From assembly GCA_024614665.1 (NCBI GenBank), contig GCA_024614665.1_4861.1: 64,000 nt of DNA; one strand, given 5' to 3'. The position numbers were made by a program, and so were the translations under genes. This document shows, piece by piece, positions 16,858 to 64,000 of this stretch. The notes under the pieces were generated by a model that did no database searches, was not told the DNA's origin, and saw only the letters and a program-made list of their open reading frames with translations. Positions within the stretch are counted from its first letter, which is position 1. Each line of letters starts with the position of its first letter. This DNA is from a phage.

Positions 16858-18451
16858 GTGATTTCCTTACAACGTAGGGGGATGTCGCGATACGGAACGA
16901 CAATACGACATCCTTGAGTGATTTCTGGCGGGCATTCAGGTAATTGCAATGCTTCGGTACGTTATACGCATGGAATAACCACACCGTTGGGTCTATTTCA
17001 CCCCATTCGTTGTGGAGAATCTTACGTGGACGACCGGCCATCTGTTCGTTCAGTTGCTGGTCTTCTACCGGGGTTGAAATGTACATGTGTACCAACCCAG
17101 GTTTATCGACCGCAGTCCCCGCTTTCCCCGGTGTGGAGATAGAGAAGTCTGCTTGGATAAAGTCGTCATACGAATCGCCTGCATTATATTTCGCCACCAT
17201 CAACGGATGGAATACAGGGTCACGCGATAACTTATCTTTCACATACTCGGTAAAGAACTCACACATCGCTACCGTAGCAAAGAGTATCAAACATTTTTGG
17301 CCAGGTTGATACCGTTTAAGGAACGATTTCTCAACCACATCCCAGATCATGTTTGCGTATTCTAAATGCATGTTCTCTTTAATCAGCTTCCCTTCGAAGA
17401 GTTTGTGGTTATACGGCGTCATCTTCGATGCCCACCACGCAAACTTCTTATCATCCAGTCGATAGTACAACGCCTTCACGTCAACTACCGGAACGATAGG
17501 GATACTGATACGGCACTCCATTGGGAAACGCTCCATGTACCGTTCGGCGATAAACGCTTTACTGGAGCCAGGAGTTAACGTTGCCGACATTTCAATGCTT
17601 GGCGGCGGGTTAAGCATTACACCTGCCATGTAGACCAGGTGGAAATGCTCATGTACCTCATCCATTCCCAACAACCCGATACCCAGCACGTCGTAAAACG
17701 TATCCAGGTCCACAGGGTTAGTTGCAGCTGTGTTGATATACTCCTTCAAGAAACGTTGTAGCGTCACCGTAGGGAGGATTATCAGCTTAATCCCACGTCT
17801 ATCCAACTCACCCGATTTACCCATCTCCAGGGCCTCGTAGATGGCCTGTACGCCGGTACAAACCAGCACGCCATCGCGAGATTCCCTTAAGCCAGTCGGG
17901 TCATCAGTGGTATCGAATATCCACTTCGGAACATAGGTCGGTCGAATGATAAGACCTGTCCTAACGCCCTTCTTAACAACCACTTTCATGAAGCTCTTAG
18001 ATTTCCCGGCTCCGGTCTGGATGGCAAATATCGTCTGTTGTCGACCTGGGGTCATCGCCGCTTCGCTAACTTCGTTCTGATAATAGAAACGTGAGTTAGG
18101 ATCGGTGACCTCGAGGTCGAATCCGTAATTATCAAACGTGCACTTATAAGGTGTTCCTCGTACAGGATGGTGCTCTGTTAGCTTGTACTGAAAAGCGTAT
18201 TCAATTGCTGCTCGTTGGAGGATATGTTTAATCTTCTCAGCGAACACTTTATGGAAAATGAACGTCCTTAAAGACGGAATGTGAGCGTAGTACGCGTCAC
18301 CGCGTTCCGTAGTTATTCGTCCATGTTGCTTGCCCATCTTTGGGGCGTGCATATTCTCTTCGGCCCACGCGAGTATGGCCCTTTCAGCCTGGCGGATAGG
18401 GACTTCAACCCGTACCCCCATACTCGTGTAAGTCATTTGAATTTCTACCAT
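16745..18451 (-). CDS. superfamily 2 helicase (DEAH-type)
   Basis: Walker A TGAGKSKS, DEVH box (LGMDEVHE), motif VI-like QMAGRPRK; start set at MVEIQ after upstream terminator hairpin. Confidence 0.8.
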   Translation of the reverse strand: MVEIQMTYTSMGVRVEVPIRQAERAILAWAEENMHAPKMGKQHGRITTERGDAYYAHIPSLRTFIFHKVFAEKIKHILQRAAIEYAFQYKLTEHHPVRGTPYKCTFDNYGFDLEVTDPNSRFYYQNEVSEAAMTPGRQQTIFAIQTGAGKSKSFMKVVVKKGVRTGLIIRPTYVPKWIFDTTDDPTGLRESRDGVLVCTGVQAIYEALEMGKSGELDRRGIKLIILPTVTLQRFLKEYINTAATNPVDLDTFYDVLGIGLLGMDEVHEHFHLVYMAGVMLNPPPSIEMSATLTPGSSKAFIAERYMERFPMECRISIPIVPVVDVKALYYRLDDKKFAWWASKMTPYNHKLFEGKLIKENMHLEYANMIWDVVEKSFLKRYQPGQKCLILFATVAMCEFFTEYVKDKLSRDPVFHPLMVAKYNAGDSYDDFIQADFSISTPGKAGTAVDKPGLVHMYISTPVEDQQLNEQMAGRPRKILHNEWGEIDPTVWLFHAYNVPKHCNYLNARQKSLKDVVLSFRIATSPYVVRKSHAHSAASSRAAATLHRNDFSKFSRKHSKGVSRRRRRR

Positions 18452-18464
18452 GCTGCCCCTCTTC

Positions 18465-18494
18465 GCACAAAAAAAGAGGGGCGCAAGGCCCCTC
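18465..18494 (-). terminator. intrinsic terminator after beta-prime-like gene
   Basis: Hairpin GAGGGGC-GCAAG-GCCCCTC followed on minus strand by T-run. Confidence 0.65.
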
Positions 18495-18497
18495 GGT

Positions 18498-20603
18498 TTA
18501 CAACTCAATTACCACAGCGGCTCCTAGGTCATCGTACAACGATGCCGGGATTTTGTACTCGGTATAAAAACCAACGCGATCGATATTCCCCTGCTGTCCT
18601 TCAAACAACAACATCGGAATTGCCGAGCGCAAACTAATGAGCGTGTTGTGATCGACAAACCGTTTCCCGGTGGCATTAGTAGAATCCTCACTGTCAAATC
18701 CTACTGCCGGGAACGGGTTGGTTGGTGACTCTACACGAGATATCGCCAACATAATCGCAATATGCGTCATCGGTATACCACTCAGCTTACGCTGGATATA
18801 CTTAAACGTGTCCATCAATGCATAAGTACACTGTTTCTCTGTAGCACCACCCATTTCAACCAACGTTACCGGTTTCACACGACCTTGTTTCTTGTTCAGC
18901 TTCACAGTCGAGGCTGTGTTGATGATTTCCACAATGTCTTCGTTCTTATCGGCAGCAATCGAACGGAGCTTGGTTTCTAAGCCGGCTACGAACTCTGCCA
19001 TCGATTCAGAACGGTTGGTGTAGACCAGGACCGGGTGTTTCGGGTTCCATCCTTTTAAGGGGATTTCTACCGTCTTCTTCTCGATACGAATGTTCGCTCG
19101 TTGTTTCAAGAAGTAGTGCAGGAACGGTTTAGAGAAGTTCCCACAAACACCCATTCGCACATCGATAGAATCCGCAGCGATTATCTGCCCATCTTCTAAA
19201 CGACGTTGGAAAGTTAAGTCGGTGATTTCTGGTAATGCCGTTTCATCAATTGCATCGAGATCTTCATGATACGCAATCTGGCTCAGCTCCGAATAAACTT
19301 TGTCGGTAACAACCAACTCGTATTCTGACCAATTCCCACGCTGTGGTTTTGGCAGCAAGCACAACCCTTTCAGAGAGTTATGTTTGTATTCGGTCATATA
19401 CTCACGCATACGTGGGGTGAGTACCAGGTTGAGCAGATAACGCAAGAAGTCAAGGTGCTTGGTAGAGAGAATTCCCTGTGTACCCTTTTCCGAGATGGAC
19501 GTGGATGCCAGGTGACCTGGTGACGTACCTTCAGAGAGGTTATAAATCAAATCCCCCATACAGGTCGCACAGATGGACTGATTCGCCATCTCTTTACAGG
19601 TCATGGCACTACGGAAGACCAGCGGTTTACCAACCAGGTCAGCGTATCCACCTTTCTCAAATCGCAACCACGGACCGTTATCGCCCTCTAAACGATAACG
19701 CATTCCCACCATCGCTTTATAGGCACGCTCATCCAGCTGCGTATCCTTAAACGTGTAGCGGTGTGCGTGTGTTGTACCGCAGTCGTCGTACGTGAAATAC
19801 ATCAGTACGTTTGCTGCCAGCTGCAGTTTACGTGAGGCGTATTCTGCTTCGGCAATCTTGTCAGTGTTGTACAAGTGGGAACGTGAAGTTGCACCGGATT
19901 CTTTCAAACGCGAAATAACCGAATGCATCCCGGTAAAGAAGCCTTCCCACACCTGATTGGTGTATACGCGCGAGTCAATTTCTGACGTTTTACCACGCAC
20001 GAAGGCTTGCAGTACCTGGTTCATCTTCACGGTACCGTCCAGTACCGACATTACGACTGGGTTATACCGCAGCGCAGGGTCTTTGAAGATTTTCTCGATA
20101 AGCTTATACGCTTCTTCAACCATATCCTGACCATCTTCATCGTAGCCAGTAGGATACTGCACTTCCCACTGACGGATGAGTTCGAAGTTCGGGTGGTCGT
20201 AGATCTCCATCATCGTATCAAAGTCGATTGTCGTACAATAGGACAGCAAGTTCTTCACTGTCATGTTGAACGCATCGGCGTAGACATGTTGACTCAGGAT
20301 ATAACGCGTTTCAGCAAGGTCGACACCTGCTTTACGGGCCAGTACCGCTGCTTCCGACATAAAGTCCAGATGCAGGTCATCTGTTGCTACCTGACCTGGA
20401 CGATACGCCATGGTCGATGGAGTGGGCACCTGCGGATACAGACGCGACACACCCCAATACGGCCAGCTGAGTTTGATGTGGCGACTAGACATTTCCAACG
20501 ACTTACCATCGTCGAAAGTCACGTAATAACGCCCGCGTAGTTTCCACACCTGATCAGAGTTAAGCATACGCAAATCACGTACGTGTACAGAACGACCCGC
20601 CAT
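18498..20603 (-). CDS. RNA polymerase beta-prime-like subunit, C-terminal part
   Basis: YDDCGT and CATC...SEKGTQGILSTKH resembling E. coli RpoC DDCGT and GEPGTQLTMRTFH trigger-loop region. Confidence 0.75.
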   Translation of the reverse strand: MAGRSVHVRDLRMLNSDQVWKLRGRYYVTFDDGKSLEMSSRHIKLSWPYWGVSRLYPQVPTPSTMAYRPGQVATDDLHLDFMSEAAVLARKAGVDLAETRYILSQHVYADAFNMTVKNLLSYCTTIDFDTMMEIYDHPNFELIRQWEVQYPTGYDEDGQDMVEEAYKLIEKIFKDPALRYNPVVMSVLDGTVKMNQVLQAFVRGKTSEIDSRVYTNQVWEGFFTGMHSVISRLKESGATSRSHLYNTDKIAEAEYASRKLQLAANVLMYFTYDDCGTTHAHRYTFKDTQLDERAYKAMVGMRYRLEGDNGPWLRFEKGGYADLVGKPLVFRSAMTCKEMANQSICATCMGDLIYNLSEGTSPGHLASTSISEKGTQGILSTKHLDFLRYLLNLVLTPRMREYMTEYKHNSLKGLCLLPKPQRGNWSEYELVVTDKVYSELSQIAYHEDLDAIDETALPEITDLTFQRRLEDGQIIAADSIDVRMGVCGNFSKPFLHYFLKQRANIRIEKKTVEIPLKGWNPKHPVLVYTNRSESMAEFVAGLETKLRSIAADKNEDIVEIINTASTVKLNKKQGRVKPVTLVEMGGATEKQCTYALMDTFKYIQRKLSGIPMTHIAIMLAISRVESPTNPFPAVGFDSEDSTNATGKRFVDHNTLISLRSAIPMLLFEGQQGNIDRVGFYTEYKIPASLYDDLGAAVVIEL

Positions 20604-31492: not shown

Positions 31493-31938
31493 TACATATC
31501 CTCAATCGCACTCGACTCGGTATCCACGTACCGCTCAACATCGTACCATTCACCGTCTGCAACTTCTTGCACACGGACACTAATGAAGATGCGGTAGCGC
31601 ACATCTGAATCTTTTAAAAACTCCCAGCTGGTTTCAACTTCAACGCCAGCAGGAAATACGTTCCCGTAGAGGTTCTCCAAATCCATTTTAATCTGGGCAA
31701 CCATCCCGTCGGGATCTTGTGCAAACACAGCTTGCGTATACGCAAGTGATTTAATGTTCCCACGATAAACTACCGATTGGCTATAGCCTGATTCGGTATA
31801 ATGGTTCATCAGCTCACGCGCCTTTTCCTGGGGTGTACGTGCCCAGCCACGTGTGGATAAAGTTCCTACCGCAATCATGTTAGCTCCTGTCAAATTCAAG
31901 GACGGAAATGTAATATTTGCCCGGTCGATAGTCCGCAT
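31492..31938 (-). CDS. hypothetical protein
   Basis: ORF in operon; true start may be internal ATG near 31878. Confidence 0.6.
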   Translation of the reverse strand: MRTIDRANITFPSLNLTGANMIAVGTLSTRGWARTPQEKARELMNHYTESGYSQSVVYRGNIKSLAYTQAVFAQDPDGMVAQIKMDLENLYGNVFPAGVEVETSWEFLKDSDVRYRIFISVRVQEVADGEWYDVERYVDTESSAIEDM

Positions 31939-32305
31939 ACTTAACGGTGTCGACTTGATGGTAAACTTTTACACCCCGAAATGTTAACCAATGATATTTG
32001 ATACTCAGCTTACGGCTAGCGATATACTCTTCGTCTAACCGCCAGGCTTGTTCAGGAGGCACATCTAATCCAACGAGCAGATCCTTCTCATCTATCTCGA
32101 GATACGCACCGTAATCACCAACCACCACACGGTTCCAACGTAGGCACACAGACACGCCACCTATTGTAGCAGTCCTTACCTTATCGAACCCGTTTAAGTG
32201 TTGCTGATAAACTGACAAAGCTTCTTCACGCACTTTCTTGGGCAATGGTCGGTATCGATACCGTGCTGCCAAGCCCTCGATATACGCCAATATAGGATGC
32301 TGCAT
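31880..32305 (-). CDS. hypothetical protein
   Basis: 141-aa ORF downstream of terminator hairpin. Confidence 0.65.
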   Translation of the reverse strand: MQHPILAYIEGLAARYRYRPLPKKVREEALSVYQQHLNGFDKVRTATIGGVSVCLRWNRVVVGDYGAYLEIDEKDLLVGLDVPPEQAWRLDEEYIASRKLSIKYHWLTFRGVKVYHQVDTVKYADYRPGKYYISVLEFDRS

Positions 32306-32352: not shown

Positions 32353-32932
32353 AACACGTCGCGCCAAGTTCCGAACAGGGATCACCATCTTCCCAGTCGA
32401 AAGCTGACATGCGTGCCCAGTTAAGTTGAATATCCACTTTATCGATTCGACTCAGTCGTACTGCACGATCTTCATTGGTAGCCCATTGCCAAATCTTATC
32501 TTCATCGTACTTCGTCGAAATGCCCGATGTTGCTTCGCGGAAGTGGTCATCGGTACGCATATACGCATTCCCTTTGAACACATCCAACCGCGAAAAGCCG
32601 TTCTCATAACCAGTCGCCATACCGTCATTATACAACTTACGATATTCCGGCATGGCAACGAGGAATGGCTGTAAAGCAGCATTGGCGAACTGGAATTCAC
32701 CCAACTCTTCGATCTGTCTTACCATCTCCACCGCATCGCTATAACGTAATTTACGTGCGGTACTGAATGTTTCACGGAAACGCTCCAGTGAGATTAAGTC
32801 CTGACAATGTTCTTTTACACGGTCAACGAGATCGGGTGCCAGGCTAGACAGCGAAAACGATTCTTTGAATACGCTGAGTGCCCCGCTACCTTCGGTCTGT
32901 TTCGTCCACACCGTGCTACCTTGTAGCCACAT
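32351..32932 (-). CDS. hypothetical protein
   Basis: 193-aa ORF followed by CGAA-tetraloop terminator. Confidence 0.7.
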   Translation of the reverse strand: MWLQGSTVWTKQTEGSGALSVFKESFSLSSLAPDLVDRVKEHCQDLISLERFRETFSTARKLRYSDAVEMVRQIEELGEFQFANAALQPFLVAMPEYRKLYNDGMATGYENGFSRLDVFKGNAYMRTDDHFREATSGISTKYDEDKIWQWATNEDRAVRLSRIDKVDIQLNWARMSAFDWEDGDPCSELGATC

Positions 32933-32945
32933 TACAATACTCCTA

Positions 32946-33185
32946 TTAGCCCATCACCGCTTCCAACGGAATGCCTTCTTCATCGTCCTCATCTGCCTCA
33001 ATAAGGAACTGGTTCTGCATACTGATTAGCTCGTTATGTAAAACCATGCCGTGTTCTACGCGGTCCACATCAGTAGAAGACATAAAGCCGTTATCTGGAC
33101 GGAATTGGAGCGCCAACTTCATCTCAGTTTCATCGACTGGCAAACGTACCTGGAACTGGTCACCATCGAAATCCTGTTTGTCCAC
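32946..33185 (-). CDS. RNA polymerase beta-prime N-terminal-like subunit, putative exon 2 (DFDGD catalytic loop)
   Basis: Encodes VDKQDFDGDQFQV resembling NADFDGDQMAV; no SD before the GTG; in-frame stop upstream at 33216-33218; exon boundary inferred. Confidence 0.55.
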   Translation of the reverse strand: MDKQDFDGDQFQVRLPVDETEMKLALQFRPDNGFMSSTDVDRVEHGMVLHNELISMQNQFLIEADEDDEEGIPLEAVMG

Positions 33186-33394
33186 CGTACACCGTTTCCG
33201 TATACAGCAGGTGTGCTAAGACACCCTCCTTATCTCTCGACAAGGCACAGACTATATCTTCACCATAGCTTACGCCTTAGGTGTTCTCCCACTTCGAAGT
33301 CCACTAGGACCCCTACTCGCATTTCAGCGATAGTCGTTGAACATTCCTCTCACGAGGCTTCGCTGCTGATTACCCATTATCACAACCCTTAGCA
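33186..33394 (-). other. putative intron in beta-prime-like gene (boundaries uncertain, may span about 33200-33600)
   Basis: ORF-free gap between beta-prime N-terminal homology and the DFDGD segment; no ORF inside. Confidence 0.45.
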
Positions 33395-34897
33395 CTATTG
33401 TTTAGCATAGGTCATCGTATCTGTTGTTTCAGACTTTCGTCCCCATTTCTGGTAGATACGCTTTAGGGTTTCCCAGCAATTCAGGAGAATACACATCGGA
33501 GGTTTCCCGTCCGATGGGGCTCTTTTCGAACCGTTAGCCATCTTTATCACACGGTCAGAGATACGCAGCGAACACTGGTTAACATCGGTAACAACTTCGT
33601 CGATGAACAGCGTCTGAATAGACAACTGTACCAGCGTTGGGTTACGTAGCGGTATAACCATGATCCCAAGACCGCCTGGGGATTCACGAATCAGTTCTTT
33701 AAAGATTTCGTCTACAAGCGGGTCATACTGCATTGCCGCTTTTGCGACGATACGTTCACACTGCCGCGACGAATAACCCCGGCGTAGCAGTTTGTTCTCG
33801 ATGTGGGTCGACATCAACCCAACCATCCAACGCCATGGTGCTTTTAACTTCCAGGCATCGTGTGGTTCTGAGATAGGTGAGATGGTTGCACGACCACCGA
33901 ACGGAATATGGGTGGAACCCAATTTCGCACGATAGTCACCCGGTTTACCTTCCATAGACTCACGACGGAAGTCCATGTGGAAGTACGTTAACTGACGGTT
34001 CGCTTTCAAAGCGCGACTAATCAGAAAACGCGGTTCGATCGCTTTACGCCGCGTATAAAGTAACGCGATATTTTTCACCGCATCAATAGCACCCGTGAAC
34101 ACTGGGTCTACCATGACACCACGACGACCTTCCTCAGTAACGATAAGTTTAGAGGAGATTAGCGGTAAGTGTCTTGGGAAGAATGCATGGCGTTGCGTTT
34201 CGAATAGCTCCTTCCATTGTAAACGTAAGCGTTCGCCTTCAGCGGCGTTATGCCGATTAGGTGCGAAGATTTCCTTCCAGGCTTCTGGCGTGGTAAGGAT
34301 GTTAAAGATACTAACGTGGTTATCAACCAGATTGCGCAAGCCACGAACGAAACCATGTTCTTCCAATACACGTTTCACAGCATGTGCGCGTTTACCGTCT
34401 GGTTCTTCTATAAGGTAATACGGGTCAATCATCCACATCATCAAGTCATTACCGCGTTCGATAGTGACCTTGTTACGTTCAAACTTCTTCAACTTGCTAT
34501 TAAAGAAAGCATTGAACATTGCCCAGAATCGTGGGTTGACGAAGTTACCCATTTCATCAGGTGCACGTAACCATACATCGGATTCAATTCGATGTTCAGT
34601 TACAACATAGCCACACGTCGGACACTTACAACCGAGATTGTAACGATGCGCGATCGGTGCCGGACAATCCAAACTACAAATCGGTGCAGAGTTCAGTTCT
34701 TCGTCAACGATTCTGTTCTGTACCATGCGATCGATAAGTTCAGCAACCTCGATCGCATCCCCGTTAACAGCGACATCGTTAATAATAGTGGGTGGTTTAA
34801 TACCTTTGGCAGCAGCTTCTATTTGCAAATCGGACAAATAGTTATCCTGACTAACCAACCGGCCGGATATTCCGTAGAATTTTGGTACCTTTCTCAC
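33395..34897 (-). CDS. RNA polymerase beta-prime N-terminal-like subunit, putative exon 1
   Basis: Zn-finger-like CSLDCP...CKCPTC; LRNPTLVQLSIQTLF resembling RpoC NRQPTLHRMSIMAF; catalytic DFDGD absent from this ORF. Confidence 0.65.
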   Translation of the reverse strand: MRKVPKFYGISGRLVSQDNYLSDLQIEAAAKGIKPPTIINDVAVNGDAIEVAELIDRMVQNRIVDEELNSAPICSLDCPAPIAHRYNLGCKCPTCGYVVTEHRIESDVWLRAPDEMGNFVNPRFWAMFNAFFNSKLKKFERNKVTIERGNDLMMWMIDPYYLIEEPDGKRAHAVKRVLEEHGFVRGLRNLVDNHVSIFNILTTPEAWKEIFAPNRHNAAEGERLRLQWKELFETQRHAFFPRHLPLISSKLIVTEEGRRGVMVDPVFTGAIDAVKNIALLYTRRKAIEPRFLISRALKANRQLTYFHMDFRRESMEGKPGDYRAKLGSTHIPFGGRATISPISEPHDAWKLKAPWRWMVGLMSTHIENKLLRRGYSSRQCERIVAKAAMQYDPLVDEIFKELIRESPGGLGIMVIPLRNPTLVQLSIQTLFIDEVVTDVNQCSLRISDRVIKMANGSKRAPSDGKPPMCILLNCWETLKRIYQKWGRKSETTDTMTYAKQ

Positions 34898-34911
34898 TCT
34901 GTCAACCTCAA

Positions 34912-34950
34912 CAAAAAAAGAGGGAAGGACGGAGGCGTTAGCCCCCGTCC
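34912..34950 (-). terminator. intrinsic terminator after the 617-aa protein gene
   Basis: Hairpin GGACGG-loop-CCGTCC followed on minus strand by T-run. Confidence 0.6.
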
Positions 34951-34979
34951 GTTTCCTAACTACTCAGTAACCGATTCGA

Positions 34980-36833
34980 TTACAGTTTGAAGTTGCTCAG
35001 AGACACGCCCAGACCGAAATCGGAACCGCTTGCAGACAGGCCGTTGCCAGACAGCGTGAAGTCTTCCCCACCGTTGTTGAAGAACAGAGAGGTCGCCATC
35101 GTGTTGTAGGCATTTACACCAGTCATAGACCAGGTGCAGTTGTTACGGACGAAGTCCAGCAGGCATTTACCGAAGATCGGGTTGATAGCCATATCCAGAG
35201 ATTCACCGGTAGCTTGCGGTGCTTTGGATGCGAACAGAGAAGCGGCCAGTTTCAGCATGTAGATACGCTGCTGACGCTCGTTCAGTTCACGGTGGCTGTA
35301 GGACTGTGCGTTCAGGTAGCTATAGACGTCGTTCGCGTTATCACCCAGTTTGGTAACAACGGAAATCAGGTCCATATCCTGGAAGCTGCGTTTCTGTGCA
35401 GTACCGGTGTAAACACCGGAAACAGTCGGTACGGCTGCTTTCACGATGTGGCTGCAATGGATGGTACCATTGAAGGCATCGCCCAGCTGTGCTTTCAGTG
35501 CAGAAGCAAATACTGCAGTGAAGCTGGTCGCTGCAACAACTTCGCCGTTCTGATCACGCGGGGACATGGAATTCAGAATAGCGAGCAGCTGTTTCAGAGA
35601 GTTGTCGTAACCGACCGCAATTTCAGACAGCATAGTAGACAGACCACCCAGGCCGTTACCGGCACGATGGCTAACTACCAGTGCTGCTTCACGCGGTGCG
35701 AACATATCCAGGCAACCTTCGATAGCTTCACGGCTACCGTCGATTTTGGATACATCAGGACGAGCGTCAGCACCCCAGGACAGGTATTCTGCCACACGGG
35801 AGAACTTGCGATCTTGTTTGTTCAGGCGTTTCACAAACAGGTCACGCCAGCCACCGATTGCCGCGATTTCTGCAAATGCAGCCAGCAGCAGCAGTTGACG
35901 TTCATACGGTGCCATTGCACCTTCAGTTTGAGAATCGACCAGACTTACTACGATTTCAGCCTGCAGCTGTTTCAGGTCGTAGACGCCGTTAACGACAGGT
36001 TTCTGACCGGTGAAACGCATATTGACGAAACCGGTACCGGATACACGCGGATACACCTGTACCTGATTGGTGTCCAGCAGAGTCGGAGTGGCATCGGTTA
36101 CGTTGCTTGGGCTGTGCTCAACGGTGATTGCGAAATCAGCACGCTGTGCGTGGCCGTTAGCATCCACAACCGCGCCATCTTCCAGCGGCATTACTGAGGC
36201 CTGATAACGGTCATGCTTACGCAGGTTCAGTGTACCCAGGTAGCCTGCGATACGACCGAAGATACCCATCATCATCTGACCCATCAGGGTACGTGCCCAC
36301 TCAGCATCCAGAACTTTACCCAGGTCTGGTACGGAGTTGATGATCATGAAGTTCGCATTGGTCAGACCATGCGCTTCCATGATGTTTTTCTGTACTACTG
36401 CCAGCACGTCTTTGTTGAACAGTTCAGTGATGGTGTAGTAGTCTTCCTGGCCGTTGTTGGTAGTTTCTTTCAGACGCAGAGACTGACCGCGTTCAAAGAA
36501 GATGATACCGTACAGCCAGTGGCCCTGCCATTGGCCTGCGACGTACGCCGCGGAACCCATTTCGTTACCCACGCCGACGATGGTGCCCCAGCGGAATGCG
36601 TTGAGGTATTCGTTGCTTTTCTTCAGCTCATCCAGGAGGTTGGTGAAGTGCATTGCATAAGTGCTGATGTTGCGGATGCCAAATGCGTTATCGAATTGGC
36701 TGACAGTAGAAGTACCCGGCACAGCAGTTTGCACTTTTACAGTCTCGTTGCCCAGACCGCCCAGTGGTGCGGTGTCTTGAGTCTGAGTGTTGTTCTGCTG
36801 AGCGTTGTTGTTAGAGTCAACGATTTTTACCAT
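34980..36833 (-). CDS. abundant 617-aa protein (major capsid protein or nuclear-shell protein candidate)
   Basis: Strong highly-expressed-type codon bias, AAGGAA SD, motif upstream, terminator downstream. Confidence 0.75.
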   Translation of the reverse strand: MVKIVDSNNNAQQNNTQTQDTAPLGGLGNETVKVQTAVPGTSTVSQFDNAFGIRNISTYAMHFTNLLDELKKSNEYLNAFRWGTIVGVGNEMGSAAYVAGQWQGHWLYGIIFFERGQSLRLKETTNNGQEDYYTITELFNKDVLAVVQKNIMEAHGLTNANFMIINSVPDLGKVLDAEWARTLMGQMMMGIFGRIAGYLGTLNLRKHDRYQASVMPLEDGAVVDANGHAQRADFAITVEHSPSNVTDATPTLLDTNQVQVYPRVSGTGFVNMRFTGQKPVVNGVYDLKQLQAEIVVSLVDSQTEGAMAPYERQLLLLAAFAEIAAIGGWRDLFVKRLNKQDRKFSRVAEYLSWGADARPDVSKIDGSREAIEGCLDMFAPREAALVVSHRAGNGLGGLSTMLSEIAVGYDNSLKQLLAILNSMSPRDQNGEVVAATSFTAVFASALKAQLGDAFNGTIHCSHIVKAAVPTVSGVYTGTAQKRSFQDMDLISVVTKLGDNANDVYSYLNAQSYSHRELNERQQRIYMLKLAASLFASKAPQATGESLDMAINPIFGKCLLDFVRNNCTWSMTGVNAYNTMATSLFFNNGGEDFTLSGNGLSASGSDFGLGVSLSNFKL

Positions 36834-49529: not shown

Positions 49530-49605
49530 CGAGCAAACGGACGGATTCGAACCGTCGAAATATCCGATTATGAGTCGGGTGTTAATTCCTCTAACTTCGC
49601 TGCTC
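49530..49605 (-). tRNA. tRNA-like, anticodon CAU (Met or Ile2), imperfect acceptor stem
   Basis: T-arm GACGG-TTCGAAT-CCGTC, anticodon loop CTCATAA, D-arm GTTA..TAAC; acceptor pairing imperfect. Confidence 0.5.
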
Positions 49606-49606
49606 T

Positions 49607-49675
49607 TGCTTTGACCGGTCTCGAACCGGCGACCTTCCTCAAAGAGGTTGCTCTACCTACCTGAGCTACAAAGCC
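49607..49675 (-). tRNA. atypical tRNA-like element (about 69 nt), anticodon uncertain
   Basis: Acceptor GGCTTTG/CAAAGC, D-arm TAGCTCAGGTAGGTAGAGC, T-arm GCCGG-TTCGAGA-CCGGT; anticodon/variable region 3-4 nt too short. Confidence 0.4.
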
Positions 49676-50757: not shown

Positions 50758-50834
50758 TGGCGGGGGCACGAGGTTTCGAACCTCGAACCTTCGGTTTTGG
50801 AGACCGGTGCGCTACCAATTGCGCCATACCCCCA
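50758..50834 (-). tRNA. tRNA-Trp (anticodon CCA)
   Basis: Minus-strand GGGGGTATGGCGCAATTGGTAGCGCACCGGTCTCCAAAACCGAAGGTTCGAGGTTCGAAACCTCGTGCCCCCGCCA: canonical cloverleaf, loop CTCCAAA, 3' CCA encoded. Confidence 0.85.
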
Positions 50835-52497: not shown

Positions 52498-53124
52498 TCC
52501 TGGAGGATACGGGTGTGCGCACGCGCACGCGTATAAGGAAAGGGTCTTCGACCCGATCCACAGGATCGATCTAAAAAACAATCTAAGTGATTGTTTTAAA
52601 AAGAAATTTTGAGAATTAGATTAAATTATCCCCTAAGGGGGATTTTAGAGTGAGTTAAACAACCCAAAGAACTCGTAAGTAACCGACAGTGTGTGTCGGT
52701 TACAGAACGATCCAGTTTTCACCCAGACATGGCACGAAGTGCTACCCAACGTGTGATCGTCGTCGCCGGCCGCGACCGTCACCTCGGAGCCGAAACGGGA
52801 ATGGCACTCTCGCGCTCTCAACGGCCCGCTGGCGCGATTTTCCGGTAGGGGGAACCCAAGTGTACTGGGTCAGGTATAAATCTCGTTCTAGCGCTTTCTA
52901 GAGCGTTTTTAATAACTGGTTAAAAAACATACAATCCTGAATCCACATTCCCTGAATTTCCTCGCCCCGACAAAAATAAATTCTCTGTCTCGATACATAA
53001 CCCCCTCTAAAACGCACGTAACCGACCCTAGAAAACGATAAACTGCCAAAAACGAGCTACCCTACATCCAGACCACTTAATCGTTTTCTGACGTCTCCTA
53101 GACCCCCTTTAACCGGCCGGTTAA

Positions 53125-53184
53125 AAAATAATCAAAAAAAAATAAAAAAAATAAGATTGGCGTACTCCCCGAAGAGAGTACGCC
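53125..53184 (-). terminator. intrinsic terminator
   Basis: Hairpin GGCGTACTC-loop-GAGTACGCC followed on minus strand by long T-run. Confidence 0.65.
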
Positions 53185-53191
53185 TAGTGAC

Positions 53192-53701
53192 TTAACACTT
53201 GATGGTATAGCCATCAAGGCCAAGGTGTACTGGTTTTATCCATAACCCTGGCTCCCCGAAAATATTCAGGTCGTAAGTTTGGTAATGCATGATCTTTGCA
53301 GGAACATGCACACCCATGCGCTGCAGAAATTCCCAGACGGCGATGTAGCGTTCACGTGTGATGAACATTAACCCGGAGTCGAACCCGGAACCGATGTCTA
53401 AGAAATTACCAAGAGAACTGTCAAAACTTGACACACCATCTTGAGTAAGTGCGACCAACCCTTTAGTTAAATCTCTGTGGTTGTCAATGAAGTTACAGAG
53501 ATCTACGATGGTTATTTGACCGTAAATACGACGGAGGACGGCAGCAACAGCCAAAATCTCGCTGGTATTTCCGTAGTCACCTAAAGGGTTATGGTCCATC
53601 ATCGCAGTAATTATGCTTGTGTCACAGAGGTCGATTAACCGCTGGTCGTGTACCACCAGGTTAAGACCTTGCCCCACCCGCATGGTTGGCGCAGTAAACA
53701 T
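53192..53701 (-). CDS. hypothetical protein
   Basis: Start set at ATG (MFTAPTMRV) with AAGGAG SD; terminator downstream. Confidence 0.65.
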   Translation of the reverse strand: MFTAPTMRVGQGLNLVVHDQRLIDLCDTSIITAMMDHNPLGDYGNTSEILAVAAVLRRIYGQITIVDLCNFIDNHRDLTKGLVALTQDGVSSFDSSLGNFLDIGSGFDSGLMFITRERYIAVWEFLQRMGVHVPAKIMHYQTYDLNIFGEPGLWIKPVHLGLDGYTIKC

Positions 53702-53711
53702 AGGATGCTCC

Positions 53712-54845
53712 TTACGTTTTGACTGACTGTGAAGGTAATCTGGCATCGTACATTAAAAAGATTTCCAGCAGGCTCATACCCGTCGCGTAAAAGATTTGGT
53801 CTGTGATGACACTCACTAACGCTTCCGGGTCTATTGCATCTACCGCAAAATCACTGTCGAACTGCCAGAACTCGACGTCATCCCCCTTTTCAAACATTGC
53901 GGCATATAGTCCAGGTTTTACACCACGCCGGAACGAAAAGAGTTTTGCGTCAGACTCAGTGTCCTTACCATAGATTTCCCCATCAGTCCGTGTGATCGCT
54001 GCACGTTTACACCGAGTTACCGTAAGGAGCGCACGGTTTGCAGATGCTTGCGATTTAAACGGATAGGGGCCATCGTATGTCGGGACATTCTGGTCGCCTA
54101 AGGCATCAAGTGCCTTACTCCGATAGACTACCGGAGACTTAAAATTACACAGTCGATTCCCTTCGGTAAACATTGTGTATTCGACCTTAACGTCGGTACC
54201 GACGAGGTCAGCAGGGGACACTTTGTAGTGTGCTAATTGTCCCTGCACGCGGCGAGAAAGCATCGATGCCAGGAACGTGTGGTTGCCCTGTGTGCGCAAG
54301 ACATACCCAAACTCTGTGCAGTCGATGATACGAGCGTCCATACGTCGTACAGGCTCCAGCCGGTAAGTCACATCATTCGCTTCGATAAGAAACTGACTGA
54401 TGCTAACATCGCGAGATCGATGTTTGATTGCTTCAAACACTTCACCCGCTTCCAGAATGGCTGGTTCAATTACATTGACCTGGAATGGGAGGGGTTTCGT
54501 CGGCCGTTGACCCATTGTTGTCACTGTCATCGAACGTAGCCATGGATCGTCCTCGCTAGGGTCATTGGAAAGCCAATGTGTTAACCAGCGAGAAAGGTTC
54601 TGTGGAATCGTTGCGGTAGAATATAAAATCACGGTACCCATTATGCCTGCATCGGCCAGCAAGCGTGCGAGTACCGTGTTCATCGAATCGTATTTACCAT
54701 TTCGAAGAATAGGTAATCCTCCGACCTGGACCATTTCGCAGATGACGCCGTGCGGCAGCACCCACATCTTCACTTGTTGGGCAGAATGTATCTGTCCCGT
54801 GCGTAGCTTTTCCTGCCACGCGTGCTTACGTTCATAGTTCATCAT
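53712..54845 (-). CDS. hypothetical protein
   Basis: 377-aa ORF. Confidence 0.7.
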   Translation of the reverse strand: MMNYERKHAWQEKLRTGQIHSAQQVKMWVLPHGVICEMVQVGGLPILRNGKYDSMNTVLARLLADAGIMGTVILYSTATIPQNLSRWLTHWLSNDPSEDDPWLRSMTVTTMGQRPTKPLPFQVNVIEPAILEAGEVFEAIKHRSRDVSISQFLIEANDVTYRLEPVRRMDARIIDCTEFGYVLRTQGNHTFLASMLSRRVQGQLAHYKVSPADLVGTDVKVEYTMFTEGNRLCNFKSPVVYRSKALDALGDQNVPTYDGPYPFKSQASANRALLTVTRCKRAAITRTDGEIYGKDTESDAKLFSFRRGVKPGLYAAMFEKGDDVEFWQFDSDFAVDAIDPEALVSVITDQIFYATGMSLLEIFLMYDARLPSQSVKT

Positions 54846-54917
54846 TGGGTAAAATCTCCTTCAGGTATACTCTCAGTATGATAACATATATCCGTAAATT
54901 TTTAGAGGTTTAGCGCC

Positions 54918-56294
54918 ATGTCTGAATTGGTTTATGATTTCAGTGCCGGTTGTTATCGTGATACCGGAGCGAAGGTTGCCGTCGAATCATTCGGACGTGA
55001 CCCATTCTTCGACGATGACACGTATTCTACGGGCTTGTATTACGACTATGGTTTTGGCGGTTACGTTCCGATGGGGCTGGTAGTTGCTGCAGAAGCCATG
55101 AAGAATGACCGATTACGTAAAGTGTTTGACGAATGTTTTAAACACGTCGTTATCGATCGTCGTTTTGCAAAGCAAATTCAACTTCACGTGGATAACATTC
55201 TTAAACGTGAAGGCAATGTGGAGTGGCTAGGGTCTAATCTATTAGGCGTCCACACCATTCGTTTCTACGATTCTGACCGTAACCGCTTTTTTGAAGATGT
55301 CTTGAAAGTGGATGAAGATTATCTGTTCGAGATGATTAAAGAATCAGGTACGATTAACACCGACTGGGCAGTGGCGGGTGATCCGTATAACCTCTCTACG
55401 GTGTATACTCTACATCGAATGATGTCGAAATTCGCCGATCGTGAAATCCACGCCGCGGCGGTATCGTTAGTAACGCTTCTGCAATTCAAATTCTACTCCA
55501 GTATATATTATCACTTCTTCCCCAAGCCGGTCGACATGGCCGCTGCCGACGCCGCATACTCGATGTTGTCGTTAAAGTTCGATATCCGTCGTTTAGGCAA
55601 CTGGGGTCTGCACATGCAGGAGCGTTCAGAATACTTCTGTTCTCCGGAGTACCCAAACTACGACGCGGTTAAACGTTTTGATACGCCAGACCTGGTATTG
55701 CGTTTTATCACCGACCTGAACACCCGTACCAAACAAACCGTGAAGGACTATTACGCGGTGCTGGACAAAGTGCGTCGTGATAACAGTCGTGTGATTACGC
55801 AGTCAACCCGAATTGAGTTAGACGGCGAATCGATTATCCGTGACAAAGTGGGTGCACTGGATATCGCTAAGCAGAATCTGTTCGATGCGTCTTACGATAT
55901 CAACAATCTTTACAAAGAGCAATTAGCAAAAGTGGTGTTGGAGCTAGTACCCAAAGCATCTCCCGCGGCACTGAAAACTTTGCTGGCGTATATTGCAAGT
56001 CTACCGCTTGGCAAAAAGCGCGATGAGATTAACGCTATCATGGAGGACACGCTATCGCACGCGTTCGACGAAATTGTTACTTCTCGTCTGAACTTTAACG
56101 ATGCGAGTACGGTTCTACTGCGTATGCGTTCGTTGTACCAGGCTTCGAAGTCCCCCAATCCGTACGTGTTATCGTTACGTGAACGTATTGAGAAACTGGC
56201 TGCACGAGAAACACATATCCGCCATGAAGCCGCATTGGCCGCTTTGCGTAATGCGTTGTTGTTGTACTTCTTGATCCGCTCTTTGCAGAAATAA
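54918..56294 (+). CDS. hypothetical protein
   Basis: 458-aa ORF followed by terminator. Confidence 0.75.
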   Translation: MSELVYDFSAGCYRDTGAKVAVESFGRDPFFDDDTYSTGLYYDYGFGGYVPMGLVVAAEAMKNDRLRKVFDECFKHVVIDRRFAKQIQLHVDNILKREGNVEWLGSNLLGVHTIRFYDSDRNRFFEDVLKVDEDYLFEMIKESGTINTDWAVAGDPYNLSTVYTLHRMMSKFADREIHAAAVSLVTLLQFKFYSSIYYHFFPKPVDMAAADAAYSMLSLKFDIRRLGNWGLHMQERSEYFCSPEYPNYDAVKRFDTPDLVLRFITDLNTRTKQTVKDYYAVLDKVRRDNSRVITQSTRIELDGESIIRDKVGALDIAKQNLFDASYDINNLYKEQLAKVVLELVPKASPAALKTLLAYIASLPLGKKRDEINAIMEDTLSHAFDEIVTSRLNFNDASTVLLRMRSLYQASKSPNPYVLSLRERIEKLAARETHIRHEAALAALRNALLLYFLIRSLQK

Positions 56295-56302
56295 AATAAA
56301 AT

Positions 56303-56346
56303 GCCACCTCTCCAGTTTCGGAGAGGTGGCTACGTCGTATTTTTTC
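56303..56346 (+). terminator. intrinsic terminator
   Basis: Hairpin GCCACCTCTCC-AGTTTC-GGAGAGGTGGC followed by T-run. Confidence 0.7.
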
Positions 56347-56360
56347 GAGTTAAAGTTGAT

Positions 56361-56603
56361 TCAGGCGAGTGCTCCCGATACGGCAACTTGATGTAGGGTA
56401 TACACAACGTGTAGCCCCGCGGTCGATAGTCCACCGATAAGCAATACGCCAAAGCTACAGGTGATCTGTCCGAGCCGCATTGTGCGTGTGCAGACATCGT
56501 GGCTTTGTGCGTGGATGCGTATTACTTCGATGGTGTGGCGTAAGCCAAAGTACAGGCAAATCCACATTACCATCACGATTGCATAGTAGAGTTGAGTCAT
56601 CAC
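56361..56603 (-). CDS. small membrane protein (two hydrophobic segments)
   Basis: 80-aa ORF with segments YYAIVMVMWICLYFGL and FGVLLIGGLSTAGLHVVY; 4-nt overlap with terminase stop. Confidence 0.5.
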   Translation of the reverse strand: MMTQLYYAIVMVMWICLYFGLRHTIEVIRIHAQSHDVCTRTMRLGQITCSFGVLLIGGLSTAGLHVVYTLHQVAVSGALA

Positions 56604-58711
56604 TTCATCCTCTGTCGTTGGATTAGCTCTTTCAAGCTTTCCATCGATGCGACGTTACGAACGTCAGTGTTGAGTTGAGAGACGAGCGCTTGAATACGAT
56701 TCTTGTACATGAGCTGTTGTACCGGGTCGGCTACAACTTGACTCTGTCTAATCATCGTTTCAATTTGCCCCATCAGTTGTTGTTGCTTTTCTTCTTCCTC
56801 GACTGCAGCCTCTTCATCGAATTCACCTGCCATGCCCCCGAGCATATTGCGGTTGCGCATCATCAGTCGGCTGTTACTTATACCGTAGTGGCCTAAGTTG
56901 TTGCCGAACAGAAGTAACCACATTGCCAGAAGCCAGGATATTACCAGGTCATCGTGACCGGATGCACGGTGGTCTATGCGCCCGTTTCGTTCGACGAGAC
57001 CGAGGATTTGGTCGATCAATTCGCCTGACCGCAGTAAGTCCGCAGAAAGACGCAACGCCGTGGTAAATACTTCACCATACAACTTACGGCGTTTATCCTG
57101 GTCGGTTGAGAAACCGATGTATTTACGGAATTTGTCCCAGAAGCGCTCTGGACTGCCCACAGGGCCACGATGGAACTCTTTGTAAAGTTCATCGTTCCTT
57201 GAGTAATCCTGGGTCACTTTCACGTACAAACGACGATGCAAATCGCGAACCTTAGATTGCAGCTGCAGTATGATGGCATCTGCTACCGAGGAGCCGGTAG
57301 ACCGTCGTTCCAGAATGAGTACCGTGTTCGGATATTCGATCATGAAGTCTGCTAAGTGAATCGCAAACCCGATGACGTTCGTTTCGTTCACGGTGAGCTT
57401 GCCGGCATATTCGGCAGTGACAGAGTTGACGATTGACATGGCAATGGCGTCACGTCCAACGGCTTCGGAGGTATCCAAACCGATGATGTGGCGGTCTTGC
57501 ATTTTAACCAGCATCTGTTCTTCAGTGTAATACCAATCCGTTACGTAGTTGGAAGCAGAGATAATTTTCTGTGCTGCCCGAATACGCGAGGCGTTCATAC
57601 GTCTTGCATCATCGCCTGAGAACGGTTTGTTGTAACCACCGGTTGTCCATTCACCACCGAAGTCACGGCGGATTTGGTCTGGTGTACCTGGGGCGTTCGC
57701 AATCATATCTGCGAGTTCTTCGTCCGTGGTACCGAGTTGGCGGTGGTTGTATTTCACGTAGAACATGATACGTGGAATCTTCGCAGTAGAGCCTTTGCGA
57801 ATCATGTCAATCAGTTGTGCACGAGTCGGAATGTCGATATACCGTTCATCCCACGAAATCCCCGACGTCATCAGGCTGTACATGTACTCACCTTCTTCTG
57901 TCGCCAAATCCCCAGGTGTTGTTGCGAAGACGTTGCCGTATGGAACACCTTCGGCTTCGTTAATACGACGCGCCGCAGTACCCGATGCTAGTGCAGCGGG
58001 GAGGATATGGTGGATGTTGTTGGTAAACGGTCCTTCATCCGAGAACAGGCGTCCGGCTGTGAGTCCACGGCCTACCCCGTTCGCAGCTTCCTTATCGTTT
58101 TGACCGATGCCGGTGATAAGTTTGTTACCCTGCGCTAGACATGCAAACGTCTCACGGTTATCAGGATCGTCCGGATGATGAGGCCAGAGGTAATCCGGTA
58201 ACGCGTTACGCAGTTGTTTCATTTTGTTGATAGTTTCTTCACGCAGGGCAGGACCCTTCGTGATAAGAATCGTACGTGAGTTCTCCAGGAAGCGCATCAG
58301 CCACAATAGCAATGCGGACATCCCGACAGTTTTACCATGCTGACGGAGAAACTCGATAGCGGCGTCGATGTTGTTGAAGAAAATCCAATACATCGAAAAG
58401 TTACCGCGGTCTAGACGAAACGGCATCCCGTTTTTTACACCATCCGCAGGGACACGGACACATTCACGGAAGAAGTACCATGGGTTTTCCGCGCACTCCG
58501 TAACAATCATCGCTTTTTGTTCGAGTGTTAAATCCGGGCTAAATGGATCAACACCACGGAGTTCGGGATTGTGTAATGCCAGGTGGACGTACCAATGCTG
58601 GACACCTAATCCTTGTAGTGTTGTGGCGAACTGAAGGAAGTGCACATTTGGTGTGACATCGTCAACAATCGCGCCAGGATAGTGTCGCCAATCGTTTTTT
58701 CGCAGTATCAT
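56600..58711 (-). CDS. terminase large subunit
   Basis: Walker A-like RQHGKT (T4 gp17 has SRQLGKT); C-terminal nuclease-like IIGLDTSEAVGRDAIAMSIV; GGAGA SD. Confidence 0.75.
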   Translation of the reverse strand: MILRKNDWRHYPGAIVDDVTPNVHFLQFATTLQGLGVQHWYVHLALHNPELRGVDPFSPDLTLEQKAMIVTECAENPWYFFRECVRVPADGVKNGMPFRLDRGNFSMYWIFFNNIDAAIEFLRQHGKTVGMSALLLWLMRFLENSRTILITKGPALREETINKMKQLRNALPDYLWPHHPDDPDNRETFACLAQGNKLITGIGQNDKEAANGVGRGLTAGRLFSDEGPFTNNIHHILPAALASGTAARRINEAEGVPYGNVFATTPGDLATEEGEYMYSLMTSGISWDERYIDIPTRAQLIDMIRKGSTAKIPRIMFYVKYNHRQLGTTDEELADMIANAPGTPDQIRRDFGGEWTTGGYNKPFSGDDARRMNASRIRAAQKIISASNYVTDWYYTEEQMLVKMQDRHIIGLDTSEAVGRDAIAMSIVNSVTAEYAGKLTVNETNVIGFAIHLADFMIEYPNTVLILERRSTGSSVADAIILQLQSKVRDLHRRLYVKVTQDYSRNDELYKEFHRGPVGSPERFWDKFRKYIGFSTDQDKRRKLYGEVFTTALRLSADLLRSGELIDQILGLVERNGRIDHRASGHDDLVISWLLAMWLLLFGNNLGHYGISNSRLMMRNRNMLGGMAGEFDEEAAVEEEEKQQQLMGQIETMIRQSQVVADPVQQLMYKNRIQALVSQLNTDVRNVASMESLKELIQRQRMK

Positions 58712-58755
58712 ACAATCTCCATACCTCCACCCCCGAAGGGGTGGAGGAAGGTTTG

Positions 58756-60399: not shown

Positions 60400-60401
60400 G
60401 A

Positions 60402-62915: not shown

Positions 62916-62925
62916 AGTGGGCCTC

Positions 62926-63831
62926 TTACTTGATGTTCAGTGGTTTGGTGTTTTGATTCAACAGAAGGTTGTAAGTGAATTCAAACTTATCGCGTTTCTT
63001 AGCGGTGTCTGACTTCTTCACAATCCCACCTAACCGACTGCGGTTAAACATGTTATTATCCAGACAAGCCTTAATCATAACGAAGAGGCTAGGCGGATAT
63101 TCGATGGCGCTAGTAGCGAGTTGTTTTTCATAACTCACCCCGAAGAAGCTGGTATTCAACATCTGCTGCAGAGACAGAATGCTCAGGTCACGCACCCGCG
63201 GAGTGATATCTGCAGCCTGCACCATTTCGACGAATTCTGCGATATTACGCGGGAAAAGATATTCTGTGTGGCCTGTCACTGATTCAAACAGTTCCGCAGG
63301 TAAGCCTAATTGCTGCTCCAGCATCTGCTGCAAACGTAACGCTTTCACGTCATCTTCGACGTGGTTATAGAACTGCCCCACTGAGAATAATGCAGCCAAC
63401 GCTTTGATTTGCCCACTTTGATATGGAGCAAGTGCAAACGTGTGGGTAATCGCATCCGACACCCATTTGCTGAAAATCTCATGGTGGTAGGGCATCTGTG
63501 CCATCAGTGCAGCAAGCTTACCATTACTCCGTTTCCACACCAATTCCCAGCGAGCCTGGTCGAGACGCAATGCGTGTTCGACTGGGTTTCGTATTTTTAG
63601 CTCGTTGGTCTTATCCAGCGTGGTAAACGTGGCTGCGTATACATAAACGTCGTCGCCGATAACAATCGGCAAAGGAAACGGTTTTACATCAGCGGTCTCA
63701 ACAACGTAATGAACTTCATCGGACTGCGAGACAGTTTGGTTAAGTTTACGGGCTAATTCCAGGTCTGCCTTGGTGCGAGTAAGGTCGATTGCATTAAAGG
63801 GATTACCGCTGTAAGCGTTTTCGAGTGCCAT
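62926..63831 (-). CDS. hypothetical protein
   Basis: ORF 62926..63993 trimmed to ATG (MALENAYSG) with AAGGAT SD. Confidence 0.6.
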   Translation of the reverse strand: MALENAYSGNPFNAIDLTRTKADLELARKLNQTVSQSDEVHYVVETADVKPFPLPIVIGDDVYVYAATFTTLDKTNELKIRNPVEHALRLDQARWELVWKRSNGKLAALMAQMPYHHEIFSKWVSDAITHTFALAPYQSGQIKALAALFSVGQFYNHVEDDVKALRLQQMLEQQLGLPAELFESVTGHTEYLFPRNIAEFVEMVQAADITPRVRDLSILSLQQMLNTSFFGVSYEKQLATSAIEYPPSLFVMIKACLDNNMFNRSRLGGIVKKSDTAKKRDKFEFTYNLLLNQNTKPLNIK

Positions 63832-63896
63832 GAGTATGATCCTTAGTATGACCATCAGGTCTTTAAGACGAATATATGGAGACGTTCCATGACTTT

Positions 63897-64000
63897 TATT
63901 CCACGAAACGGCGCGCCGTTGAATAACAAGCAAGGTTGGCAGGATAACTCTGTCCCCGAGCTTGTGCGTACCCCTACGGGTGACGCAATTCATAAGCCGC
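63897..64000 (+). CDS. hypothetical protein (5' fragment, continues beyond window)
   Basis: ATG at 63897 with GGAGACG SD; open frame to window end. Confidence 0.35.

Follow-up and report, generated by a model that had tools for sequence, protein, structure and literature searches.

We analysed a 64,000-nucleotide (nt) stretch of phage DNA (NCBI GenBank assembly GCA_024614665.1, contig GCA_024614665.1_4861.1; hereafter the window), which is collinear with the genome of Salmonella phage SPN3US, a nucleus-forming jumbo phage of the genus Seoulvirus. Positions 1853-52603 of the window match SPN3US 50000-1 at 97.6-99.4% identity, whereas 52661-64000 correspond to the other end of the SPN3US record. 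Our subject is a gene of the non-virion RNA polymerase (nvRNAP), that of its N-terminal beta-prime subunit, homologue of phiKZ gp55 and SPN3US gp23. It lies on the minus strand, as do all the features below unless otherwise stated, and is interrupted by a 356-nt insert; this we identify with high confidence as a group I intron with an architecture of the IA type. In phiKZ, gp55 is the N-terminal beta-prime-like subunit of this enzyme, and its DFDGD motif coordinates the catalytic Mg2+ (PMC8287921). Exon 1 (33530..34897) comprises 1368 nt, that is, 456 codons from a GTG start to the 3' end ..AAG AUG GCU AAC GGU, and is collinear with SPN3US 17704-19071 at 98.5% identity. Exon 2 (32946..33173), which reads GAU UUC GAU GGU GAC CAG ... 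UAA, holds 75 codons plus the stop, opens with the Mg-binding DFDGD and is 99.6% identical to SPN3US 19072-19299. A preliminary description of this DNA had seen here two open reading frames (ORFs), a long one with beta-prime hallmarks that ends before the catalytic motif and a small one encoding the DFDGD segment, and had proposed a compact intron between them. Both are found in the ORF list: the 500-residue ORF (33395..34897) contains CSLDCPAPIAHRYNLGCKCPTCG, a cysteine cluster, and LRNPTLVQLSIQTLF, and the 79-residue ORF (32946..33185) starts with GTG and reads (V/M)DKQDFDGDQFQV. As also claimed, the small ORF has no ribosome-binding site, with no Shine-Dalgarno-like sequence in front of it, and an in-frame stop precedes it, 13 codons upstream when read in the equivalent frame of phage JN03.

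The proposal of a compact intron was borne out by a covariance-model search of the minus strand, in which the Rfam family RF00028 (Intron_gpI) matched 33228..33537 with 65.5 bits (E value 9.5e-16) over the full model, positions 1-253, above the curated gathering score of 50. This was the sole Rfam match in a scan of 32500-35200 and it also passed the threshold in a scan of the whole window, where no second intron was found at gathering thresholds; nor did the other polymerase-subunit genes of the window show any insertion relative to SPN3US. With blastn, positions 1-1420 and 1778-2051 of the window gene aligned to uninterrupted SPN3US sequence, leaving an extra segment of exactly 356 nt that is likewise exactly missing from SEGD1, MET_P1, SPFM19 and SPLA1a. 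The junction was placed by sliding a 356-nt deletion along the sequence; two adjacent placements were equally good and gave an identical protein, and the boundary was chosen because only one of them has a U before the 5' splice site and a G at the end of the intron. Defined in this way, the intron occupies 33174..33529, starts with UCGAAAAGAGCC, ends with GGACAAACAG (..AAACAG, the terminal G at 33174), carries no endonuclease ORF and leaves, once removed, the junction ..AAC GGU|GAU UUC GAU GGU GAC. The interruption had previously been drawn at about 33186-33600 and said to hold no ORF, so its existence stands with a corrected extent, and the absence of ORFs was only partly accurate, as ORF ends run into the intron from both sides. 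On one side the exon-1 frame reads on for 44 codons (SKRAPSDG..YAKQ) to a TAG (33395..33529), a tail outside the mature protein; on the other, the first four codons of the 79-residue ORF (VDKQ) are intron sequence. A 113-residue antisense ORF overlapping the intron (33051..33392, plus strand) was dismissed as a chance ORF, the sequence being constrained as RNA on the opposite strand.

Conceptual splicing produces a stop-free coding sequence (CDS) of 1596 nt and 531 residues, and intron-less relatives carry a single continuous gene of 1596 nt. The spliced product equals SPN3US gp23 at 530 of 531 residues, with L162R as the sole difference apart from the start codon. In PHROGs it belongs to phrog_2987 'RNA polymerase beta subunit' (E 9e-179), and its closest solved relative is phiKZ gp55 (PDB 7OGP_A, E 2.1e-38, over residues 52-494 with the double-psi beta-barrel region), to which it aligns continuously through the junction (IKMANGDFDGDQFQV in one, LKAPNADFDGDQLNL in the other), an alignment already suggested in the preliminary description; in the same PDB comparison, bacterial beta-prime chains gave E values of about 1e-4 to 1e-5. 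A Pfam search with the two ORFs taken singly returned no matches, the family being recognised only via the spliced protein in PHROGs and PDB. Only after splicing does DFDGD (..MANGDFDGDQ.., residues 457-461) stand in one polypeptide with the rest of the subunit, as the 500-residue unspliced ORF lacks the motif. The conceptual junction peptide is MANGDFDGDQFQVR, and the peptide specific to read-through, from the SKRAPSDGKPP.. stretch, is SKRAPSDGKPPMCILLNCWETLK.

The helices of the intron follow the order P1, P2, P3-P6, P7, P7.1, P7.2, P3', P8, P7', P9, P9.1 and P9.2. The 5' splice site is held in the P1 hairpin (33518..33532), which is formed in the minimum free energy (MFE) fold and closed by a 5-nt loop, GAAAA: the exon bases GGU (33532-33530) and the intron bases UC (33529-33528) pair with the guide sequence GAGCC (33522-33518), and the splice-site U stands opposite a G in a U.G wobble. 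P3 (33489-33483 with 33290-33284) delimits a domain (33284..33489) enclosing P4 (33478-33473/33369-33364) and P6 (33363-33341), with P5 at 33468-33466/33375-33373 and its extension helices at 33460-33383. The guanosine-binding helix P7 is a pseudoknot spanning 33250..33335, in which GACUA (33335-33331) pairs with UAGUC (33254-33250). Two extra hairpins, P7.1 (33330-33317) and P7.2 (33313-33296), separate the 5' strand of P7 from the 3' strand of P3; such a pair of hairpins between P7 and P3' is the rule of subgroup IA, whose layout is thus reproduced. P8 (33283-33261) and the peripheral 3' helices P9 (33245-33228, with a GAGA loop), P9.1 (33226-33209) and P9.2 (33207-33185) complete the architecture. 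Folded as a single sequence, the MFE structure already forms P1, P2, P5a, P5b, the P6 hairpin, P7.1, P7.2, P9 and P9.2, with a z-score of -4.99.

Related introns at or beside this site all score 52-69 bits on RF00028, and seven sequences from four lineages were aligned: the window, JN03, Proteus phage 7, Raoultella phage VB_ZK_P1, Klebsiella phage phiKp_32, Vibrio phage 2 TSL-2019 and Photobacterium phage PDCC-1. From this alignment RNAalifold recovered P2, P3, P4, P5 with its extension, P6, P7.1, P7.2, P8 and P9.1, with compensatory changes in 39 of 84 pairs. The P7 pseudoknot, P9, P9.1 and P9.2 were added by hand before the pairs were counted; 93.0% of the cells were then paired, against 36-44% when the partners were slid by 1-3 columns, changes on both sides occurred in 44 of 95 pairs, and the observed covariation was reached by none of 500 shuffles. 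The tested structure derives in part from the same sequences and is therefore somewhat favoured, but the margin over the controls is still large. Helix by helix, compensatory changes affect four of the seven pairs of P3 (100% paired), three of four in P7.1 and five of seven in P7.2, and P7 shows 100% of its cells paired in six distinct sequences, with one compensatory change from U-A to C-G. Moreover, the guide sequence covaries with the exon (GGU|UC with GAGCC in the window, GGU|AA with UUGCC in Proteus phage 7, GCU|AA with UUGGC in the Raoultella and Klebsiella phages, GAU|AG with CUGUC in Vibrio), and the U.G wobble is kept in every lineage compared.

A megablast search against phage genomes yielded 34 close relatives of the window, among which the same 356-nt intron occurs in six at 96-97% identity (JN03, SPLA5c, SPLA3, EC001, Lh1B and 1252). 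Proteus phage 7 and Salmonella phage SaP7, and probably SPFM1, bear at the identical site an intron of 1404 nt, and the examined remainder of these relatives have none. Twelve alleles compared at this one site thus fall into three states, five intron-less, five with the short intron (the window and four more) and two with the long intron, on exons that are about 98-99% identical. The long form (2922-4325 in L003 for Proteus phage 7, and the same in SaP7, L015) encodes a 286-residue I-HmuI-like endonuclease with HNH and NUMOD1 domains (phrog_59, E 5e-28; Pfam NUMOD1, E 4e-15), the ORF of which (L003 3119-3979) occupies the P1 loop, after the 5' splice site and ahead of the guide sequence. The long and short introns share the insertion site, the flank GCU AAC GGU|GAU and the ribozyme architecture but differ in the endonuclease ORF and in the ribozyme core, only 79% identical to that of the window against about 98% for the exons; we therefore regard them as distinct intron lineages and not as a recent deletion pair. 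In the 356 nt of the window intron there is no ORF except the read-through tail, and no homing endonuclease; three related intron endonucleases compared by tblastn with the 64-kb window found no homologue in it either, the best match being one of 38 residues at 5337-5429 with E 0.008. As it encodes no homing endonuclease, the window intron has no means of moving by itself and represents a mobile element in ORF-less form, one that presumably lost its endonuclease at some point in its history. Proteus phage 7, phiKp_32 and phiKZ encode mutually homologous endonucleases (E 1e-14 to 1e-19).

The twelve alleles contain 77 variable exon columns, of which just three co-segregate with the intron, all of them synonymous third-codon sites (33536, 33533 and 33530, at -7, -4 and -1 from the splice site); the sites at -15 and +7 show no such association. 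Exon 1 ends in GCU AAC GGU wherever the intron is present (seven of seven alleles) and in GCA AAU GGA wherever it is absent (five of five); the intron-less site of SPN3US reads GCAAATGGA|GATTTC, and a synthetic intron-less site would read GCTAACGGT|GATTTC. The U at -1 is required for P1, and the co-segregating tract is very short. A longer P1 accounting for the changes at -4 and -7 was considered and rejected, the opposite bases being C/C and A/C; these changes may instead reflect a minimal co-conversion tract or an effect on nuclease recognition. As a separate observation, exon polymorphisms are mosaic across the window and the 11 other Seoulvirus alleles, with blocks shared in varying combinations, a pattern in the aligned sequences that indicates frequent recombination among these phages, independent of the intron state.

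Splicing would follow the pathway that is standard for the family. In the pre-mRNA, the GGU end of exon 1 and the first two intron bases would pair with GAGCC to form P1, with the U.G wobble at the splice site; exogenous guanosine bound in P7 would attack after the splice-site U, and the freed exon 1 would then attack after the terminal G (33174). Ligation of ..AAC GGU to GAU UUC GAU GGU GAC would give the 531-residue subunit with the catalytic loop NGDFDGD. In an unspliced message, translation would stop 44 codons into the intron, giving a 500-residue protein devoid of the metal-binding aspartates.

Several points weigh against this interpretation. P1 is short, with five base pairs of which only three involve the exon, and its pairing does not explain the synonymous changes at -4 and -7. 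Splicing in this phage and in other Seoulviruses is, moreover, deduced from the sequence and the RNA structure, and a long-read transcriptome of phiKZ gave no evidence, under its conditions, of splicing for the introns predicted in that phage (PMC10914365). Despite this negative result, mature phiKZ gp55 contains the exon-2 motif. Our splice model for phiKZ, AAU|...|GCU GAU UUU GAC GGC GAU, has an exon 1 of 415 codons followed by A416 and D417-D421, and the published numbering of the mature protein is 417-DFDGD-421 (PMC8287921), a numbering that would be impossible unless the 415-codon exon 1 of phiKZ were spliced.

Could the gene be truly split, the 500-residue protein and a 79-residue DFDGD peptide initiated at the GTG at 33185 assembling without any RNA splicing? 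Several GenBank records do give two CDSs ('beta subunit 1' and 'beta subunit 2'), and the beta and beta-prime subunits of jumbo phages are naturally split elsewhere (PMC7598289). Yet in siblings that lack the intron the gene is uninterrupted and encodes the same residues on either side of the junction, the stand-alone DFDGD gene, which the preliminary description had named as a finding that would speak against an intron, appears in homologues only as an annotation artefact ('beta subunit 2'), and the intervening DNA is a covarying ribozyme above the Rfam threshold. A split would also part the catalytic loop from the beta-strand leading to it, and leave the loop to an ORF that lacks a Shine-Dalgarno sequence and has its first four codons in conserved intron sequence, all of which makes such an arrangement extremely unlikely. 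Other known ways of bridging an interruption in a phage gene are an intein, a programmed frameshift or a translational bypass. The first two had already been judged ill-fitting on account of the stop codons, rightly in our view: the TAG reached after 44 codons of the exon frame makes an in-frame intein impossible, 356 is not a multiple of three, and no frame is open across the insert. For a bypass, 356 nt is about seven times the hop of T4 gene 60, and the segment scores as a group I ribozyme in any case, leaving to these mechanisms a vanishingly small probability.

It may still be asked whether the insert is a decayed relic that no longer splices, making the gene a pseudogene in this phage. 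The lack of an endonuclease ORF places the element beyond the mobile stage of the homing cycle, and its splicing is a predicted one. What makes it very unlikely is, on the one hand, that the subunit carries the catalytic aspartates of a polymerase on which this phage group depends for middle and late transcription (PMC5105663, PMC8287921) and, on the other, that the core helices are all preserved, as are the U.G wobble and the terminal G, and the same 356 nt are kept in seven independent genomes at 96-97% identity, with exon changes that are only synonymous or rare. A group I intron that is presumably spliced in vivo is therefore the reading that we retain.

The same short segment of the gene is a crowded target across chimalliviruses of various genera, as at least seven insertion points fall within the 22 nt that encode N-A-D-F-D-G-D-X of the nvRNAP beta-prime subunit. 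Insertions are found between N and A in phiKZ, between A (or G) and the first D in Seoulvirus and in the first intron of the Raoultella and Klebsiella phages, between that D and F in Vibrio phage 2 TSL-2019 and PDCC-1, inside the Phe codon in the first intron of Escherichia phage Goslar, between G and the third D in Vibrio phage 5 TSL-2019, the EL-like HHBS47_1, pEa_SNUABM_54 and the second intron of the Raoultella and Klebsiella phages, between the third D and Q in PS119XW, and one codon after the third D in the second intron of Goslar. Conceptual splicing of 12 orthologues restored (N/G)(A/G)DFDGD in every one; every intron is preceded by T and ends in G, a terminal G found in 14 of 14 related introns. 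Aeromonas phage D6, Erwinia phage Asesino and SPN3US have uninterrupted orthologues.

Two insertions per gene occur in Raoultella phage VB_ZK_P1 (2483-2847 and 2860-3170 in L004) and in Klebsiella phage phiKp_32 (1418-2847 and 2860-3170 in L005), in both cases separated by a 12-nt micro-exon, GATTTTGACGGT, that encodes DFDG. The first scores 59-64 bits and is clearly a group I intron, the phiKp_32 copy of which contains an HNH ORF of 339 residues. The second, of 311 nt, opens with a P1-like hairpin (GGU|AA ACGUA UUGCC) and ends in G, and no Rfam family matched it even at E<=10. Goslar likewise bears two apparent insertions (3739-5178 and 5192-5525 in L018) that flank a 13-nt micro-exon, CGACGGTGACGCT; annotation is limited to the first, and the second, of 334 nt, gives a partial RF00028 match of 16.7 bits (E 0.06). 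With convincing P1 hairpins and poor or no Rfam scores, these second insertions are putative ribozymes.

From this distribution a tentative scenario may be drawn, to which we would give distinctly less than an even chance: the window intron would be a branch of a radiating family, mobilised by HNH endonucleases at the seven or more positions of NADFDGD, and its ORF-less copies would act as an immunity allele in phage-phage interference, not as inert selfish DNA. Such copies may be maintained because a site, once filled, is no longer open to cleavage by the intron nucleases that co-infecting relatives encode. The three-state polymorphism, in enterobacterial phages that are easy to handle, and the clustering of insertion points at the catalytic loop are in any case useful and apparently undescribed. 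Empty, ORF-less and HNH-bearing states in close relatives make a natural test set in enterobacterial hosts, suited to studying endonucleases as weapons between nucleus-forming phages (as for PhiPA3 against phiKZ) and immunity conferred by ORF-less introns. Another aspect concerns gene expression, as transcription in these phages is physically apart from translation (PMC12908238), so that folding and splicing of the intron must proceed with no help from ribosomes, unlike those of the T4 introns, which require translation according to work cited in PMC10914365.

There is also a practical side to these results. None of the Seoulvirus GenBank records examined, including SEGD1, L002 and L012-L015, has an annotated intron; they give a truncated polymerase CDS, mostly with a separate, spurious small CDS labelled 'beta subunit 2' or hypothetical, and in SEGD1, where exon 1 lacks 1 nt (alignment column 748), the gene is unannotated. 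The catalytic subunit of therapy-candidate Salmonella and E. coli phages is, in consequence, misdescribed in the records. Our literature search found no paper specific to the intron of Seoulvirus (SPN3US-like) phages. The paper on the essential genes of SPN3US refers to introns only in the legend to a scheme of homologous virion RNA polymerase (vRNAP) subunits of SPN3US, phiKZ and 201phi2-1, and has no text about an intron in the nvRNAP beta-prime gene.

Directly upstream of the polymerase gene lies that of a 617-residue homologue of the nuclear shell protein (34980..36833; phrog_8316, E 5e-302), known as phiKZ gp54 or chimallin. The order from shell gene to polymerase subunit is common to phiKZ (gp54, gp55), Goslar, the Vibrio phages and PS119XW, in all of which the equivalent upstream gene is labelled 'nuclear shell protein'. 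Between the two genes (34912-34950) there is a 10-bp GC-rich hairpin, GGACGGGGGC TAAC GCCTCCGTCC, followed by TTCCCTCTTTTTTT; it is terminator-like, and a consensus scan gave no call, the T run beginning late. Besides the intron, the aligned 50 kb contain just one further insertion with respect to SPN3US, an unrelated 391-nt segment (31902-32292) with a 141-residue ORF (31880-32305) that matched no PHROG or Pfam family; SPLA1a, SPLA3 and the SPFM phages carry it at about 98% identity, and SPN3US lacks it. Elsewhere in the window, both Rfam and ARAGORN called a tRNA-Trp (CCA) at about 50758-50833, and adjacent weak Rfam tRNA matches at 49532-49603 and 49606-49675 (30.6 and 38.1 bits) had no ARAGORN call; the corresponding tRNA region of SPN3US is annotated 'tRNA-OTHER'.

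Group I introns of this kind are already known, including one in the same gene of phiKZ, and it is the Seoulvirus intron that is unannotated in the records examined. In phiKZ the orthologue is annotated as gp55, the HNH endonuclease gp56 and gp56.1, and RF00028 scores 75.6 bits there. Introns tied to gp56, gp72 and gp179 have been predicted since the genome paper, the gp55/gp56/gp56.1 predictions being attributed to Mesyanzhinov 2002 and Ceyssens 2014 (both points as cited in PMC11512511 and PMC10914365). Like the window intron, that of phiKZ is a group I intron in the orthologous gene, beside the shell gene and just before DFDGD, with a U at the exon end and a G at the intron end, and the intron core of phiKZ-like phages is about 76% similar to that of the window over a 100-nt stretch. 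It differs in being inserted 3 nt, one codon, upstream (AAU|GCU GAU against GGU|GAU) and in its length of 1372 nt, with the HNH gp56 in its 5' part, whereas the 356-nt window intron has a 5-nt P1 loop and no ORF.

The helix order, with P7.1 and P7.2, is also that of the td, nrdB and nrdD (sunY) introns of T4, which occupy essential phage genes and belong to subgroup IA2 in the classification of Michel and Westhof, the likeness being one of general architecture. They differ from the window intron in their host genes and phage family, and their ORFs sit in different loops and encode GIY-YIG or His-Cys box enzymes instead of HNH ones. Closer to the window is the case of Goslar, an E. coli chimallivirus (NC_048170) in which RefSeq annotates 'Intron_gpI' and an adjacent HNH endonuclease in the orthologous gene; there, however, the insertion falls within the Phe codon (UU|C), the ribozyme core is 5' of the endonuclease ORF, and the unannotated 334-nt insertion follows the 13-nt micro-exon. 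Finally, the gp210 HNH group I intron of PhiPA3 acts in the competition between co-infecting phages (Birkholz et al. 2024, PMC11620839). Like the window intron, it is a group I intron at conserved aspartate codons of a chimallivirus RNA polymerase gene, but its host is the vRNAP beta subunit, homologue of phiKZ gp178, and it carries an active endonuclease where the window intron has none.

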